A stretch of DNA of 64,000 bases from a virus: the IMG/VR virus record IMGVR_UViG_3300024999_001421. One strand, given 5' to 3'. The notes below the pieces were generated by a model. The model was not told the origin of the DNA, did not search any database, and saw only the letters and a list, made by a program, of their open reading frames with translations. This document shows, one piece after another, positions 18,215 through 57,564 of this stretch (position 1 is its first letter; each line of letters begins with the position of its first letter). Position numbers and translations under genes: made by a program.

Positions 18215-18290
18215 TGGCTGTGAAGGTAGGTCTCGAACCTACGACAAGTTGATTAACAGTCAACCACTCTACCTACTGAGTTACTCCACA
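18215..18290 (-). tRNA. tRNA-Asn(GTT)
   Basis: Cloverleaf: acceptor TGTGGAG/CTTCACA, anticodon arm GTTGA-CTGTTAA-TCAAC, T arm GTAGG-TTCGAGA-CCTAC, encoded CCA. Confidence 0.93.
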
Positions 18291-18401: not shown

Positions 18402-18477
18402 TGGAGCATCATGTAGGATTCGAACCCACAACCTTCTCCTTACAAGGGAGTTACTCTTCCAGTTGAGTTAATGATGC
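18402..18477 (-). tRNA. tRNA-Thr(TGT)
   Basis: Acceptor GCATCAT/ATGATGC, anticodon loop CTTGTAA, T arm GTGGG-TTCGAAT-CCTAC, encoded CCA. Confidence 0.9.
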
Positions 18478-50072: not shown

Positions 50073-51361
50073 GCAGGGGAAAGATCCCCTGCTTTTTTAT
50101 GCAAAAAAAATTTACTATTTCCTGGTAGGCGGCTTTTAACGGGTATACCTCCATAAACCGGTGAGAGTTAAGCAGTAGCGTCTGTTGATTCGGCAATCGC
50201 GTCGTCAAGCCACTGAATTTCAGCTTGACGACGCTTTTTGTCTGCCTCAACATCGGCAATATACTGTTGGATGCAGAGTAATGCTTCTTTGCGCTGTATT
50301 GGATAATAATTTCTTGCCGGGTGACTGTGGCATTGGCAGGTGCCAAGACCTAGGTCGGAACTGCTGTAACAATTGATTTCTGTAATCATCCATTCGCCGT
50401 CATGGAAATACAGGGATTTTTCGGCAATATTGTCGCCGTACTGGTTGATTCTGGTTTCCAAAACTAAATCTTGACCTGCGCGTAAATTTTCAAGCATACC
50501 TTTTAGCATTTCAATTCCTCCCTTAGTTTTTAATCTCCTACCCAACGCCTTCTTGGACGCTTGGCAGGGGATTAAACCCCTGCTAACAACTATTCGACTA
50601 TTTGCGGATGCGCCACTGATTCCCAACCGTCACCTGTCCAGCGATAAGATTCTCCCATTGTAGGGATAACCATATCGCAACCATAGACAGTTTCATGCAC
50701 AAACTTTCCGTCGTAGCGTATAATTTCTTCAAGGATAAAGTCTTTCTTGTGACTTAACTCACTGGTGTTTCCTGATGTGGAAAACCCTGTGCGCTGTAGT
50801 TTTTCCGATCCGCTTCCTGGCATTGTGTACCATTTCGCAACCGGAACCGGCATTGCATCAAATGGACCAACCCTAGATTCCGATCTTTTGCTTTTGGAAC
50901 CACTTTCAGTTGTGTATCCTTCAGCGACCGCATACCACTTTCCGCTAGTTTGAAACATATTCATCATTTTTCCTCCTTCGCCGGTTCTCCCGGCACTAAT
51001 TTTTTAACCACAATCTCGCTAATCCCCTTCCCTTCAAATGCCGCCTGTTCGCGTAGTTTTTCAGCAAGCGACTTAGGGAAGGTTATGCTGATACGTATTT
51101 TGTCTCTCGGTATGGTCATACTTCCCATTTCCCTTCGGTCACGCATAGTATTTGACCAACGGAATCGGAACAAAGGTGTAGAGAACGGTATAATTTAGCT
51201 GTTTCCTCGCGGTTTCTGCCGAGATAGCGCGATGCTTCAACTGCATCACGGAAACTTTTAACAACATTGTCGTTGCGCTGTGGGAGTGCTTGGAATTTTC
51301 TCTCCCAATTACAGGTATCGAAAACTTGCTCTAACGTCATGGTATGCGCCTCCTTTTGCTT

Positions 51362-51403: not shown

Positions 51404-54400
51404 GCAAAAAAAATATTAAAGTTTAGCCATAATTTCCGACATTGCATATTTGATATTGTTTAACTTACTTTGCTCTATATCAATCAGGTTAACGAGTGCT
51501 AATGTATCCTCGCTGGACATATTATATTTACCGGACAATTCCCAGACTAACTTTTTAATCTCTCCAAGTCTGGATTGCTTTAGTTCATCGAAGCGTTGCG
51601 GTTGTGGTTTTGGTTGATTAGGATTAATCACTGTACCACCTCCACCCACTCTGCCGCTCTAAAATGCTCTGCCGTCCACTGACAGGCATCCAACGGCGAA
51701 GTTCCCCAGACTTCCTTCCGATCCACCCCAGCAGGGATAGTAGTTTTGCCTATGCGTAAGTCGGGGAAATGGACTGACAATCGGTATTTGCTTAACCCAG
51801 GTGTATTTGTACCTGTCGGCGTTTTGCCCCGCTGTATCGGGTTGCTAGACGTGTTTATGGTCATTGTGTTGCCTCCAATGTGCTTTCCTCTAACATCTTC
51901 CTAAGTTCCCTCGCCACGTTACCCAAAGCATCCGACTTACCACGATAATAACCTTCTAGGTACTCTTGGTTATTACGTTTCATTATTTCCATTTCGGTCT
52001 TAGCATTTATAGAACTCGTGGCGTAGTTTTGGATTAAAATCTCTATGTATTCCCGCATATAACGACCTCCCTCATAGTATTGGGGTAATCCCCTCCCGAA
52101 ACCCTCCTGCTAGAGAGTTTAGGCAAGGGACGTTAGTCCCTGCAATTATCCTGTAAGATGCAAATACCAAATTGATCTACCAGACTTATATCTTTTGTTT
52201 TCCTTGGTTACAAACTTAGTAACTTTAAACCTTACATAATTACTTCCATCCCTTCTAACACTGCCCGAAATGTTATTTCCTTTCATATACTTTTTTACTG
52301 CCTCGGTTGCATTTTTAGCTATTACTACCGCATCATCATTAAATAAACCTTTGTTTCCATCATAGATTAAATATGTATTAGTCATAAATCTAACCCCCTT
52401 TTAATTTTACCAAAATCCCCTCTTGTGACACTTTGGTAAAACTGCGGCGTTAAGGTGCCGCTTGCCTCATACTTGTTGCTAATCCAGTAAACGTGTTAAT
52501 TTATTTCCCTTGAATGGCTTTAGCGTTTCACTATCGTTCCACCAATGCCATTCTCCCCCGAAAAGTTTAGGAATGAAAATTTGCTGTTCTTTGTCTAGTG
52601 TGTACCTAAGATTATCCATATCAAGTGAAAATGTTTCCATGTCCTTCTGCATCTTTTCGCCTTGAATAATTCGCGCCCTCTGGATTTTAACCCTGCCGGT
52701 TTTTGTGTGACTGATAACTACTACAAGTGATTCTTGTGTCGTGTAGTACCAGTCCTTAACCGCAAAACCGTTTATTTTTAATATTTCCTGTGCCTTCTGT
52801 AAAGCTGTTTTGCCGTCCTTGTCGGTTGTCGGTTGTGCTGCGCCTATCGGTAATAGGTTGTTAATGTCTGTGGTATTACTTCCCTTTGTGCTACCGTTGC
52901 GAGCAATCTTTAAAACTCTAACTTGAGTAAATGTAGAGTAACAATAAATATGGTCAATGCGGTAAGTGCCGTTCCACTCCTTGACCTGGCACTCCTGACC
53001 AACCTTCCAACCGTCGAACTCCTGCACATATCCAGTTTTGACCTCTTGCCGTGGTGCTGTTGCTGTGATAATCGGCATTTGAGCGTTAGAGAAATTTATT
53101 ATCTTTGTCATGGTATGACCTCCTATGTTATAATATCGGTGGACATATATTTTCCCTGCTCCCCGGTTTTACTGCTCACAACAGCTACCGGGGAGTTTGA
53201 ATTTGTATATTAACAGGCGTATTTTCCCAGTACGGTTTTAGTTGTATTTTCCTTCCAGTTTGCGCTATTTATTATCGACCAATGTTTATTATAGCCGTTA
53301 AAATGCCTCAATAAATGGAGTATTTCGCGGTTATCCTGATCTACCCATAAGGAAAAGTTAGGGTATTGCTTGCCCTCGCTTTTTTCCAAGGCGTAAAAAT
53401 AGGCTTTAATTTCCTCTGCGCGGGCGGTAAGTTCTGCGTTAAATTTGAATTCATCCCCGAAGTTATGACCCTCGCGGTCTTTAAAAACTCGATAACCGGC
53501 CAAGTCAGGAAGAATAACAACCTCGTCAAAACTGCAACCCAGAGAATTTACAATACTGAGAATTTCGGATTTGGTGTACTTAAAAGTTTTGTGTCTCATA
53601 CTGACGATGCTGTGCTTGTTACAATCGTCGTCATTATGGATATAATGGCAATGGTCAACTATCCCGGCAAAGGTAAATTGTTTAACGCTTTTGACGCTGT
53701 TTTTGGTTACTTCAAAACCAGACATTTCTAAGTAGATTGCCTCCCCTTTGTCATTGTGAAAAGCTGTTCTAATGCGGCAATTTTCAACCATTCCGCGCGG
53801 TACGCATCCGGCACCTTCAAAATATAAAGTTTTCATAATTTTAGCCTCCCTCATAGTTTTAACTAAACCCTCTCGCAAAAGGATTTAGGTAAAACTGCGA
53901 CTTTAGGTAGTCGCGGACCTGCTACCTAGTCCAATATTTCCTTTGATTTTGCCATAAACTAAATGCCTGAGATTCGGTTGGAGCAATGTTAAGTAAGGAA
54001 TTATAATTGTAGTAATTGCCCGACCTTCCTATTTTTACTTGAAGTAGGAATTTATTACCATATGAAAATACGGTGAATATATTTTTAAAACTCTTGAACT
54101 CGTTTACTATCATAATATCCCTCCTATATTTACCTCAACAAAACCCCTCTCTAAAGGAGTTTTGGCGAAGCAGGGACCGGAGTCCCTATTCCTTGCACAT
54201 CCCAGAAACTTGTCGCTTGTGTATTTGCATTTCTATAGTAGCAAGTTCCAAGTATGCTTCTACTTTTTGATCCCAATGTGCCGGGACTTGCGGATCGTTG
54301 ACAATTTCCAGAATTTCAAGCGCATCCTTCTTTTCTTGCAGTATTTCTGAATCTTGAAGCGTCTCAAGGTGCTTCCAAATAGATTCCATGAATATTACTT

Positions 54401-55027
54401 TTTCCTCAAACATAATTATCATCCTCCTTAGATTTTACGTCCAACCCCTACAGGGACCAGAGGTAAAACCTAGCGAGTGCTAGGTTAGTGCCTGCCATAT
54501 TCTATGGTTAATTCTAAAGTGTCCTTTTCGACATCTCTCCTTAATTTTGCCGTACTCCTACAGTCTTTATTTTCCTCTTTCCAATCAATACCCATTTGGC
54601 GAAAATATAATGTTACTTCGGTCAAATCACCCTTAAGCAAGTCCTTCCATGTGTAGTCAAAGAAAATTAACAAGTCTGTACAGTAGCAGTCGCATTGCTT
54701 AACCGCTTCGCGCAGTAACGCTTCTTTTATCGACTGCGTGTTTTGTTCTTCACCGTAAGAATTGCAAACCTGAAGTTCCTTAATGTTTACTTTCGGCATA
54801 ATCATCAATCTCCTTTTAGTTTAAATTCACGTCAATTCCCTTGTGGGTACTCACGCAAACCTAAACTACCATGCTTCCCCTTTTCTGCACCTCTAGCGGA
54901 TATCCCTTCGGGTCCAGTGTTCGCTTGCCTTGGCTGGCCCTTTCGGATTATGCCGACTTCGCTGGTTCGCGCTGTGGGGTTTTTGTATTCTTTTCTGCGT
55001 GTGCGGTGCGCTTTGTTGCTGTGGTTT

Positions 55028-55085
55028 CCCACTATGGCCACTTTCGGCCATTTCGACTTGTTACCGTCAAGTCTCGTCAGGTGGG
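55028..55085 (-). ncRNA. Type I hammerhead ribozyme (HH2)
   Basis: CCCAC-CUGACGA-GACUUG(ACGGUAA)CAAGUC-GAAA-UGGCC(GAAAGU)GGCCA-UA/GUGGG; full core and three perfect stems. Confidence 0.93.
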
Positions 55086-55086
55086 T

Positions 55087-55371
55087 TTATGCTGTCCTAT
55101 AGTGTTCAATCGCTCCTGTGCTAAGTTGCATTAACAGGTTTGTCATGTGACTTAACTTCCAACTTTCTACTAGACTTGAAGTTCCGAACAATCTGTCTAT
55201 TGCTACATATCTTCCGTACCAAACCATTAGTTCGATTGGGTTTTTTCTATTTTTGGTGTAGTAGTCGAAGTTTTCATTAAACTTTCTTGCCGCCAACTCC
55301 AGTTCTTCCTGTAATAATGCGTTTTCAGCTTTGTTTAGTTTTTTTATGCTGATGCTTTCGGCTGTTTTCAT
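55087..55371 (-). CDS. 94-aa hypothetical protein bracketed by two hammerheads
   Basis: AAGGAGG RBS; stop codon 1 nt from HH2 stem I. Confidence 0.8.
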   Translation of the reverse strand: MKTAESISIKKLNKAENALLQEELELAARKFNENFDYYTKNRKNPIELMVWYGRYVAIDRLFGTSSLVESWKLSHMTNLLMQLSTGAIEHYRTA

Positions 55372-55423
55372 ACTGTCTGCCTCCTTCGATATTCTGTTTT
55401 CGTGTTGTGCAGCTTACTTTCAT

Positions 55424-55474
55424 CCTGCTATGGGGTTTTATCCCCATTTCGCTGTCTACAGCTCATCAGGCAGG
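55424..55474 (-). ncRNA. Type I hammerhead ribozyme (HH1)
   Basis: CCUGC-CUGAUGA-GCUG(UAGA)CAGC-GAAA-UGGGG(AUAAAA)CCCCA-UA/GCAGG; full core and three perfect stems. Confidence 0.93.
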
Positions 55475-55790
55475 CTAGAATTTAATGCTGTGAAATACGC
55501 AGAAGTTGCAAAAGTCGATTAACTTAGTTCTGTTTAGGTTTACCGCTTTTTCTAGTCCTACCGATTTGGTGTACTGCTTGATTTTGCGCTTTAGCTGTTT
55601 GGTCATTTTGTTTCCCCCTTATTTAATTTGTAGCTAATAAGTAACCCATGTATCCGATTCCTACCAGGAGAGCGATTCCCATTCCTACCGGGTGAAACAT
55701 TGTAGTTACTGCTAATGCTGTGGCGGTGTATTTAAGAAGTTTTTTCATGTCTGCGCCTCCCGTTCGTGTGTTGCTGTGTTCCATGTGCTT

Positions 55791-55863
55791 ATACTATCAT
55801 CTGGATACCCATGCCGTAAAGCCTCAAATAACCTTATATTCAGCCATTTATGGGTATCCAGAT
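55791..55863 (-). promoter_or_regulatory. Promoter of the leftward operon with a 14-bp inverted-repeat operator
   Basis: TTTACG-N18-TAGTAT with extended TG; ATCTGGATACCCAT (55799) and ATGGGTATCCAGAT (55850). Confidence 0.6.
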
Positions 55864-55874
55864 TATCCTGCCTG

Positions 55875-56075
55875 CTAAATACTAGCTGTATCTGCCTTTT
55901 TCAGCGTTTTTTGAAGTTCCGCAAGTTCTTTTTTGATAGCATTTCTGGCTATTTCGGATGCTGGAACCCGCGTATCTGCTGATATTTCGGCTAGTTTTGC
56001 TTTATCCTCGGTTGACAGGCGCAGGTTAAAACTTTCCCAGCCATCTCTATATTTTTCTTTTCTTTTTGCCGACAT
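55875..56075 (-). CDS. Ribbon-helix-helix regulator
   Basis: ESFNLRLSTEDKAKLAEISADTRVPASEIARNAI. Confidence 0.75.
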   Translation of the reverse strand: MSAKRKEKYRDGWESFNLRLSTEDKAKLAEISADTRVPASEIARNAIKKELAELQKTLKKADTASI

Positions 56076-56335
56076 TTTGACCACCTCCAAAGACAGTATA
56101 CTACATGGGCTTCCATATGGCAACCCAGCCATTAGACGGATCTGCATTTGCCGGAAATGCTATATATAGAAGGAAAACGGAAAGTTTTGCTTGAAAATGG
56201 GCTTTGGCCGTGGTAAAATGGTAGTGTGGGGGTTTTATACCATGTTGTTTTTACCTACTGTATTGAGTAGGGATATATCGTTTTCGAGGCACCTGAGAGG
56301 GTGCTTTTTGCTTTACATAGAAGGAAGGTGAATTT

Positions 56336-56854
56336 GTGTCTGACAAAGATATTGTTTTACAGGAGTTCGCCAAAACGGTGAATCGTTTGAAATCAAAGGG
56401 CGTTGACTTGACAAATACCTATTATGGTTTCCGCGAGGATATTTCCGAAGAGCAGGATCGCGTTCTCTGGCAGCCTGAAAAGAAATTCGTAAAAGTTTTT
56501 CCTGACGAACTGGCTAATGTTGTAACGATGCTTGACGATGAAGGAAAACGCCTCAGCGGTGCAGAGCTGGCTATTGTCATGTTGCTCATGGGACATATCA
56601 GCTACAACAGCGGAATGTTGACAAAAGGCGGCGGTAACCCGGTTAGTCAATCAGACATTGAAAAGATTACCGGGTTTAATAGGATTACCGTTGTTAAGAG
56701 CATGGACAGGTTAGTTCGTAAAAAAGTTTTCGCTCGTAACAAGGTAGGCAAAAGTTATCAATACTTCGCAAATCCGTACATCTTTTTCCGGGGCCGGTTT
56801 ATAAACGCGACTCTGGTGGATATGTTTAAAACCTACAACGCTAATGATAGTTAG
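56336..56854 (+). CDS. RepL-like replication/maintenance wHTH protein
   Basis: FVKVF, SQSDIEKITGFNRITVVKSMDRL, YFANPYIFFRG. Confidence 0.7.
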   Translation: MSDKDIVLQEFAKTVNRLKSKGVDLTNTYYGFREDISEEQDRVLWQPEKKFVKVFPDELANVVTMLDDEGKRLSGAELAIVMLLMGHISYNSGMLTKGGGNPVSQSDIEKITGFNRITVVKSMDRLVRKKVFARNKVGKSYQYFANPYIFFRGRFINATLVDMFKTYNANDS

Positions 56855-56923
56855 TTTGCGGTATCTTAGAGTTAATAGAGGCATCTAAAGCCTAAAAAGT
56901 GTCGCTCATGCCTTGTGTTTGCT

Positions 56924-56997
56924 GGACTACAACCGACTTATAACATGTAGTCTGTAGTATACCTATAGTGGCATTTCATGTAGTCTGTGGACTACAT
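56924..56997. repeat. Iteron-like direct and inverted repeats downstream of the repL-like gene
   Basis: CATGTAGTCTGT twice plus inverted GGACTACA twice. Confidence 0.55.
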
Positions 56998-57564
56998 ATC
57001 AAAGATACCTCTTAGGCCAATAGCGACAACGACTAGAAGGTGTTTTGAACGCAATAGACTCCTCTTATTACTCTAAGATGTTTTGGTAACTATGTTTTAA
57101 AGTGTTGGGAGTGCTGAAAAGTGACATTATTTCAAGCCAAAGTTCATTGTGTGAAATGTAATAATGCAATGGAAGTAACGCTAACAAAGAAAAGTTATGT
57201 AAAATTTGTTTCTAATATATTTCAGTGTTATTTTACGTGCAATGACTGTTTGAGAGAAGCAGGACATAAATTAGCAAAGAAAAATACGGCATTGATGGAA
57301 ATGGAAATAGAAATGCCTGATTGATTTTGTAGGTACTAAACCACTTAAAACAATTTTAAGCGGCTGTACGAGGCTGTGAGAGGTGAGAAAAGCATGGGAT
57401 TTGGTTTTCCGACAGGCAAGGACATACTTAAAGTTGTAGTTGTACTTGTTTTTGTGTCAGCATTGGCAGGTGCAGGAGTTTTGAAGCTGATACAGATTAT
57501 GTGAGAATTGACCTTTGCCGATGGTGAAGGTGAGTTTTCGTATTATAGGAAGGAAGTGAGTTGA

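Follow-up and report, generated by a model that had tools for sequence, protein, structure and literature searches.

Hammerhead ribozymes that flank single genes or short gene blocks in prophages have been published by Perreault et al. 2011 (PMC3088659), and the layout described here is thus not new. In their clusters, same-strand hammerheads surround a single small gene within one phage transcription unit, the identity of the enclosed gene is variable, and a pseudoknot serves as tertiary contact. The clustered ribozymes cleave in vitro and, in one case, in vivo, and it was proposed that they process the transcript into single-gene mRNAs, with a circular or spliced alternative also being raised. 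A 2019 review (PMC6765202) presents processing as the leading but unproven idea for phage hammerheads: a benefit has been demonstrated for no phage, and the role of hundreds of these ribozymes is formally unknown. Operons punctuated by twister-sister and pistol ribozymes (Weinberg et al. 2015) are covered in the same review, and in the account given there equivalent sites beside similar kinds of genes are taken by different self-cleaving classes. In viroid-like RNAs and retrozymes (Cervera and de la Pena 2020, PMC7229834), two hammerhead cuts generate an RNA of unit length, whose ends are a 5'-OH and a cyclic phosphate. As the two ribozymes of these elements are copies of a single repeat, the excised ends re-form a hammerhead; the RNA itself is highly structured and does not code for protein.

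We analyzed a window of 64,000 nucleotides (the whole stretch of DNA under study), which derives from an uncultured phage in Rifle aquifer groundwater metagenomes. Its gene content (terminase large subunit, portal, primase-helicase, and RecT) is that of a tailed phage. The locus lies in a leftward operon (~56150 to ~50100) of small genes without assigned function, which is divergent from a winged-helix gene and starts with a gene for a ribbon-helix-helix protein. A blastn search of 54000-57000 against 50,697 phage records returned no match. The central features are:

55475-55606, minus strand: 43-aa ORF, whose TAG stop abuts HH1
55474-55424, minus strand: HH1, type I hammerhead (descriptor, fold, covariance model R1)
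55033-55428, minus strand: predicted double-cut RNA of 396 nt (coordinates, fold)
55087-55371, minus strand: 94-aa ORF with a MWYGRYVA..RLF block
55085-55028, minus strand: HH2, type I hammerhead (descriptor, fold, model R1, RAGATH-1-hammerhead trace)
55021-55027, minus strand: 3' tail of HH2, AAACCAC (pseudoknot covariation, fold)
54809-55020, minus strand: leader between HH2 and the 107-aa ORF, ~220 nt with the HH2 tail (to 55027) (fold)
54485-54808, minus strand: 107-aa ORF, the next downstream cistron

Both hammerheads present their elements in the order stem I 5' strand, core, hairpin II, GAA, hairpin III, H17, and stem I 3' strand; loops close stems II and III whereas stem I is left open, which makes them type I. 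HH1 combines stem I CCUGC/GCAGG with the core CUGAUGA, GAA and A17 at 55429, a 4-bp stem II carrying a UAGA tetraloop, and a 6-bp stem III starting with the A15.1-U16.1 pair. The corresponding elements of HH2 are stem I CCCAC/GUGGG, the core CUGACGA, GAA and A17 at 55033, a 6-bp stem II with the loop ACGGUAA, and a stem III of 7 bp by descriptor (6 bp in the RNAfold drawing). Judged by the core criteria of Perreault et al. 2011 (PMC3088659), the catalytic core is complete in both motifs (C3 U4 G5 A6 N7 G8 A9, G12 A13 A14, A15.1-U16.1, H17 = A). All helices are Watson-Crick paired (by descriptor, 5, 4, and 6 bp for helices I, II, and III of HH1 and 5, 6, and 7 bp for those of HH2), with no mispair adjoining the core at 10.1-11.1, 1.1-2.1, or 15.1-16.1, and the lowest-energy fold of each sequence calculated with RNAfold is a three-way hammerhead junction. 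The two motifs differ in sequence in every stem and have in common an AUA cleavage triplet, with predicted cuts at 55429/55428 (HH1) and 55033/55032 (HH2). The TAG codon at 55477-55475 ends 0 nt upstream of HH1 and the TAA codon at 55089-55087 ends 1 nt upstream of HH2. An initial sequence-only reading had described two complete type I cores on the minus strand with these triplets, stop codons, cuts, and the resulting 396-nt RNA, and all of its coordinates hold.

HH1 and HH2 lie on the same strand of a phage window, 396 nt apart with one ORF between them, and thus form a cluster of the type defined by Perreault et al. (2011). The present pair differs from the published clusters in its origin from an uncultured groundwater phage, in enclosing a member of an orphan gene family, and in that both ribozymes are type I with AUA triplets; long hairpins take the place of ribozymes at other junctions of the operon.

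A type I descriptor returned only HH1 and HH2 as good matches in 128 kb (both strands of the window), and descriptors for type II and type III hammerheads gave no match there. When the window was dinucleotide-shuffled 300 times, three descriptor matches appeared at looser thresholds (~0.01 per window). At gathering score, an Rfam scan of the whole window retrieved two tRNAs only and no hammerhead model match, and none of the twister, pistol, and hatchet models reached its threshold. With E values up to 10 permitted over 54000-56500, the sole trace was RAGATH-1-hammerhead with 18.5 bits over HH2 (gathering score 56.3 bits). Our covariance model R1 was built from 75 IMG/VR phage hammerheads, of which none comes from the studied phage. 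Its scores are 67.3 bits for HH2 (E 2.6e-15) and 42.6 bits for HH1 (E 6.7e-9), and the window contains no further match to it. The strength of these scores indicates that the Rfam miss reflects the seed alignments and not the motifs. The Rfam search that the sequence-only reading had put forward as a check thus fails at gathering score, whereas the family model recognizes both motifs. We conclude that HH1 and HH2 are two genuine type I hammerheads and not chance matches.

Relatives were collected by two IMG/VR pattern scans for the stem I sequences of HH1 and HH2, which yielded 44 and at least 118 stretches. Scanning 162 loci in all (both pattern scans plus earlier loci) with the type I descriptor, we located 155 complete type I hammerheads, which represent 119 unique sequences. 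An alignment of 75 sequences contains compensatory changes in 20 of the 22 modelled pairs, and its paired cells amount to 92%, compared with 68% in shuffles and 30-44% when the partners are slid. This heavy covariation fits the earlier suggestion that the different but fully paired stems of HH1 and HH2 reflect selection on structure. Stem I and the core next to it hardly vary across unrelated phages; the AUA triplet is rare in the family (5/119). In about half of the family (alignment A2), an additional U separates A9 from the first stem II pair (CUGAUGA-U-GG); HH1 and HH2 are without this U.

The family shares a pseudoknot in which loop II pairs with the 3-5 bases directly 3' of stem I. Three core pairs of this pseudoknot covary among the 75 relatives (for example, G-C in 41 and A-U in 11 sequences, or C-G in 25 and U-A in 23). 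In HH2, the three core pairs are formed by GGU 55065-55063 in loop II and ACC 55025-55023 in the 3' tail. We found no pseudoknot partner for HH1, which is a member of a smaller subgroup whose stem II has 4 bp and a tetraloop and whose pseudoknot partner is missing. A candidate pairing of the HH1 loop II (UAGA) with the 5' flank UCUA, which spans the upstream stop codon, has no support from relatives: loop II/5' flank pairing occurs 18 times among the 119 relatives compared with a mean of 11.6 and a maximum of 20 in permuted controls. As it is no commoner than in these controls, we dropped it. A tertiary contact of stems I and II, either loop-loop or pseudoknot, is needed for fast hammerhead cleavage. 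HH1, with a tetraloop alone on stem II and no detectable tertiary contact, may thus cleave slowly at cellular Mg2+ concentrations.

The 3' tail of HH2 offers a second pairing in the post-cleavage product, where base pairing of CCAC 55024-55021 with GUGG 55032-55029 can create a hairpin with a GAAA loop at the 5' terminus. In the family, a complement to the first four bases of the cleavage product is present downstream as CCAC in 50/66 ribozymes with a CCCAC-type stem I and as CCGC in 8/9 of the CCCGC type, and such a complement is rare across stem I types. The pattern suggests a conserved hairpin at the 5' terminus of the product that would form after cleavage.

The placement of the family members follows rules. 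In 68 of the 155 hammerheads (44%), only 0-2 nt separate stem I from the stop codon of the upstream ORF, compared with 1.8% of random same-strand positions; in another 22 of the 155, the upstream ORF terminates at the UGA within the catalytic core (CUGANGA). In the literature searched, we found no description of this adjacency or overlap rule for phage hammerheads. The next start codon with a Shine-Dalgarno motif is located a median of 39 nt downstream of the ribozyme. The ribozymes are linked more closely to the upstream than to the downstream gene, which fits a role as the 3' end of the upstream gene. We identified 30 tandem pairs, whose cuts are 212 nt or more apart. In many of them, a lone ORF of 43-150 aa lies between the ribozymes and begins 30-60 nt past the cut. 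By its spacing and its enclosed ORF, the 396-nt unit of the window is typical of these pairs.

A variant contig, L003, is identical to the window over the 43-aa gene, HH1, the 94-aa gene, and HH2, and completely divergent upstream. It carries a further ribozyme:

L003:238-291 (compare window 55607-55640): third type I hammerhead, upstream of the 43-aa gene, 50.7 bits

This hammerhead has a GUC triplet and an extra U after A9, and its stem I is that of HH1. In the window, a 53-aa membrane ORF takes its place, and the mosaic breakpoint, at which homology resumes, lies a few bases downstream of the third ribozyme. Comparison of L003 and the window reveals that, among very closely related phages, ribozymes are gained and lost together with adjacent gene cassettes.

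The predicted 396-nt RNA starts with a 57-nt 5' leader that contains a ribosome binding site, continues with the 94-aa ORF, and closes with most of HH2, which gives it a structured 3' end. The leader contains AGGAGG (55385-55380) 8 nt upstream of the ATG at 55371, and folding of the complete fragment is not special (z = -1.7). The 94-aa protein belongs to no Pfam or PHROG family, and no function could be assigned from PHROGs, Pfam, or the ESM Atlas. A word-based protein search and an IMG/VR protein scan returned only the protein itself, and an exhaustive HMMER search located three relatives (on contigs L166, L169, and L170, listed at 54, 42, and 50% identity) that have the MWYGRYVA..RLF block in common with it.

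Model R1 detects no hammerhead near the three homologous genes. The L166 homologue has its own promoter-like site and an intrinsic terminator; there is no ribozyme at the L169 homologue. In L170, the gene is preceded by its own consensus promoter, and a twister-sister ribozyme (41.6 bits, gathering score 34) overlaps its stop codon. Further down the L170 operon we find a second twister-sister (54.1 bits) and a pistol (68.1 bits), and the contig also has a weaker pistol-like match (31.8 bits). The matches are:

L170:840-911, ribozyme match at a gene junction
L170:2110-2182, ribozyme match at a gene junction
L170:2699-2766, ribozyme match at a gene junction
L170:3163-3208, ribozyme match at a gene junction

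The window itself contains hammerheads only, and its link to the ribozyme-punctuated operons of Weinberg et al. 2015, as far as these are summarized in PMC6765202, is the twister-sister over the stop codon of the L170 homologue. Conserved ribozyme flanking of the 94-aa gene, which the sequence-only reading had put forward as a test, is seen in part: a 3' ribozyme recurs in L170, where it is of another class, whereas the 5' ribozyme does not recur. The shared feature is a defined end of the RNA and not a matched pair of cuts. The interchange of ribozyme, promoter plus terminator, and twister-sister supports the view of a cellular need for a defined RNA end at this position, by whatever means it is produced.

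Downstream of HH2, the ~220-nt leader of the 107-aa gene folds into a branched GC-rich part followed by a long hairpin directly before the ribosome binding site (z = -3.7 for the whole leader). The hairpin (54868-54817) has a 16-bp run and two 3-bp runs across single-base internal loops (z = -5.65). This leader is unusually long compared with the family median of 39 nt; it contains no convincing ORF and has no Rfam match. Most other junctions of the operon also have paired stems totalling ~15-22 bp directly before the ribosome binding site, with z values down to -5.65. Long imperfect hairpins without a U tail are found at:

54817-54868, minus strand: junction hairpin
54420-54490, minus strand: junction hairpin
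54110-54190, minus strand: junction hairpin
52383-52482, minus strand: junction hairpin
50500-50595, minus strand: junction hairpin

These hairpins look like RNase III-type processing sites. In phage T7, RNase III cuts early polycistronic mRNAs between the cistrons, leaving a structured 3' end on each upstream message. The studied operon resembles this system in its predicted intercistronic cuts and in the long hairpins at its other junctions, and differs in that at the HH1 and HH2 junctions the RNA would cut itself, with no need for a host enzyme. The stems before ribosome binding sites suggest that most junctions are processing sites, and nearly every junction of the operon then has a potential processing element, two of these being ribozymes. 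A scan of the minus strand between 56150 and 53914 revealed no terminator-like site.

Taken together, intercistronic processing of a polycistronic phage mRNA is the best-supported reading of the locus, and we consider it probable. Each ribozyme would fold once transcribed and then cut itself. The upstream cistron would retain the folded ribozyme with its 2',3'-cyclic phosphate as a structured 3' cap, and the downstream cistron would begin with a 5'-OH and a short leader bearing its own ribosome binding site. Cuts at HH1 and HH2 would set free the 94-aa gene as a separate linear mRNA of 396 nt, and would also split off the upstream 43-aa gene, of which HH1 would become the 3' end, and the downstream 107-aa gene. 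The stability and translation of neighbouring cistrons would thereby be uncoupled. That double cleavage would liberate a one-gene RNA had been anticipated by the sequence-only reading, and the coordinates support this prediction.

Several lines of evidence lead to intercistronic processing: the intact cores, the family-model scores, the covariation, the HH2 pseudoknot, and the tailed-phage context without an intervening terminator-like site, as well as the stop-adjacent layout, the tandem pairs, the hairpins at other junctions, the homologues that are set off by other means, and the cleavage of comparable prophage clusters by Perreault et al. 2011, who proposed this role. From the observed motifs, family membership, placement rules, and context, we infer cleavage in vivo and an effect on expression. 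Against processing stand the absence of a tertiary contact in HH1, the rarity of the AUA triplet, and the failure of the Rfam hammerhead models to detect either motif. In hosts with RNase J1, a 5'-OH end can destabilize the downstream mRNA, as in the decay that follows glmS ribozyme cleavage in Bacillus subtilis. By analogy, if the phage had such a host, the 5'-OH could destabilize the downstream message rather than insulate it. The locus is a tidy test case that leaves the general picture unchanged, with ribozymes at two junctions and long hairpins at others.

The stop-codon rule bears on a second explanation, in which a ribosome that is terminating, or queuing behind another one, opens up stem I and the core, so that cleavage depends on translation of the upstream gene. 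The fate of the downstream cistron would then follow how heavily the upstream gene is translated. The size of the ribosome, whose footprint would reach into the hammerhead, argues for such gating, as do the strongly non-random stop adjacency and the stop codons embedded in the catalytic core. Tight packing in compact phage genomes alone could explain the adjacency, however, and we found no alternative structure specific to a switch. We thus regard both the dependence of cleavage on upstream translation and its consequence for the downstream cistron as unlikely. The sequence-only reading had suggested that the closeness of the stops might couple cleavage to termination; the closeness is a rule across the family, whereas the coupling itself is doubtful. 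The rule by which a ribozyme starts at or overlaps a stop codon could still provide a lead on a link between translation and cleavage.

In a third explanation, the ends of the 396-nt fragment would be joined, either by host RtcB or by the reverse reaction of a ribozyme, into a stable and translatable circle. Hammerhead products have the 5'-OH and 2',3'-cyclic phosphate ends that suit RtcB. Folding of the fragment predicts an inactive conformer in which the CAGG at its 5' end is base-paired to the CCUG where the HH2 core begins; the two ends would then lie in proximity. That matched pairs exist is seen in L003, where two hammerheads with identical stem I flank the 43-aa gene. At the studied locus, in contrast, the hybrid stem I (CCCAC/GCAGG) forms only 3/5 pairs with 2 mismatches, and the ribozyme fold does not hold the ends. 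The compatible flanking ribozyme copies of retrozymes are accordingly not found here: the stem I sequences differ, the RNA is an ordinary mRNA, and it is encoded once in a DNA phage. The sequence-only reading had seen in the mismatched stem a safeguard for the circle. The mismatch would indeed prevent re-cleavage, and at the same time it removes the scaffold that holds the ends together in viroid-like circles.

Among the 30 neighbouring pairs of the family, stem I is matched in 10 only, which indicates that there is no selection for compatibility. The PHROGs scan revealed no RtcB-like family among three large unassigned ORFs, and the stop codon of the enclosed ORF precludes rolling translation from a circle. 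The L170 homologue, with a promoter upstream and a single ribozyme downstream, cannot give rise to a circle via two ribozyme cuts. Circular or spliced products were sought by Perreault et al. 2011 (PMC3088659), and none were seen. The stem I mismatch, the 10/30 pairs, the L170 arrangement, and this published negative result leave the earlier idea of a circular mRNA unsupported, and we consider joining of the ends by either route very improbable. The more specific proposal of an RtcB-type ligase producing a circular, translatable phage mRNA that escapes re-cleavage because its hybrid stem I is mismatched appears marginally less probable still. If true, the RtcB-ligated circle would be the first natural protein-coding circular mRNA of a DNA phage.

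The breakpoint in L003, located a few bases past a hammerhead that is absent from the window, brings up a fourth explanation: the conserved ends of the ribozymes would act as short homologies for swaps of small genes, with cleavage being secondary. The near invariance of stem I and the adjoining core across unrelated phages would agree with such a boundary element. However, stem II, stem III, and the pseudoknot covary strongly, which indicates selection on the RNA fold and not on DNA identity only, and a single mosaic junction is an anecdote. We find this explanation highly unlikely.

That the motifs are inactive relics or chance look-alikes, as might be argued from the Rfam gathering score that neither reaches and from the missing tertiary contact of HH1, is extremely improbable given the intact core positions and three perfectly paired stems of both motifs, the 3 matches in 300 shuffles, and the strong family-model scores.

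Two minor observations concern the wider sequences. By eye, the L170 junction at 1125-1190 resembles another twister-sister. The two phage tRNA genes of the window map to the minus strand at 18218-18290 and 18405-18477 (65.2 and 62.2 bits).
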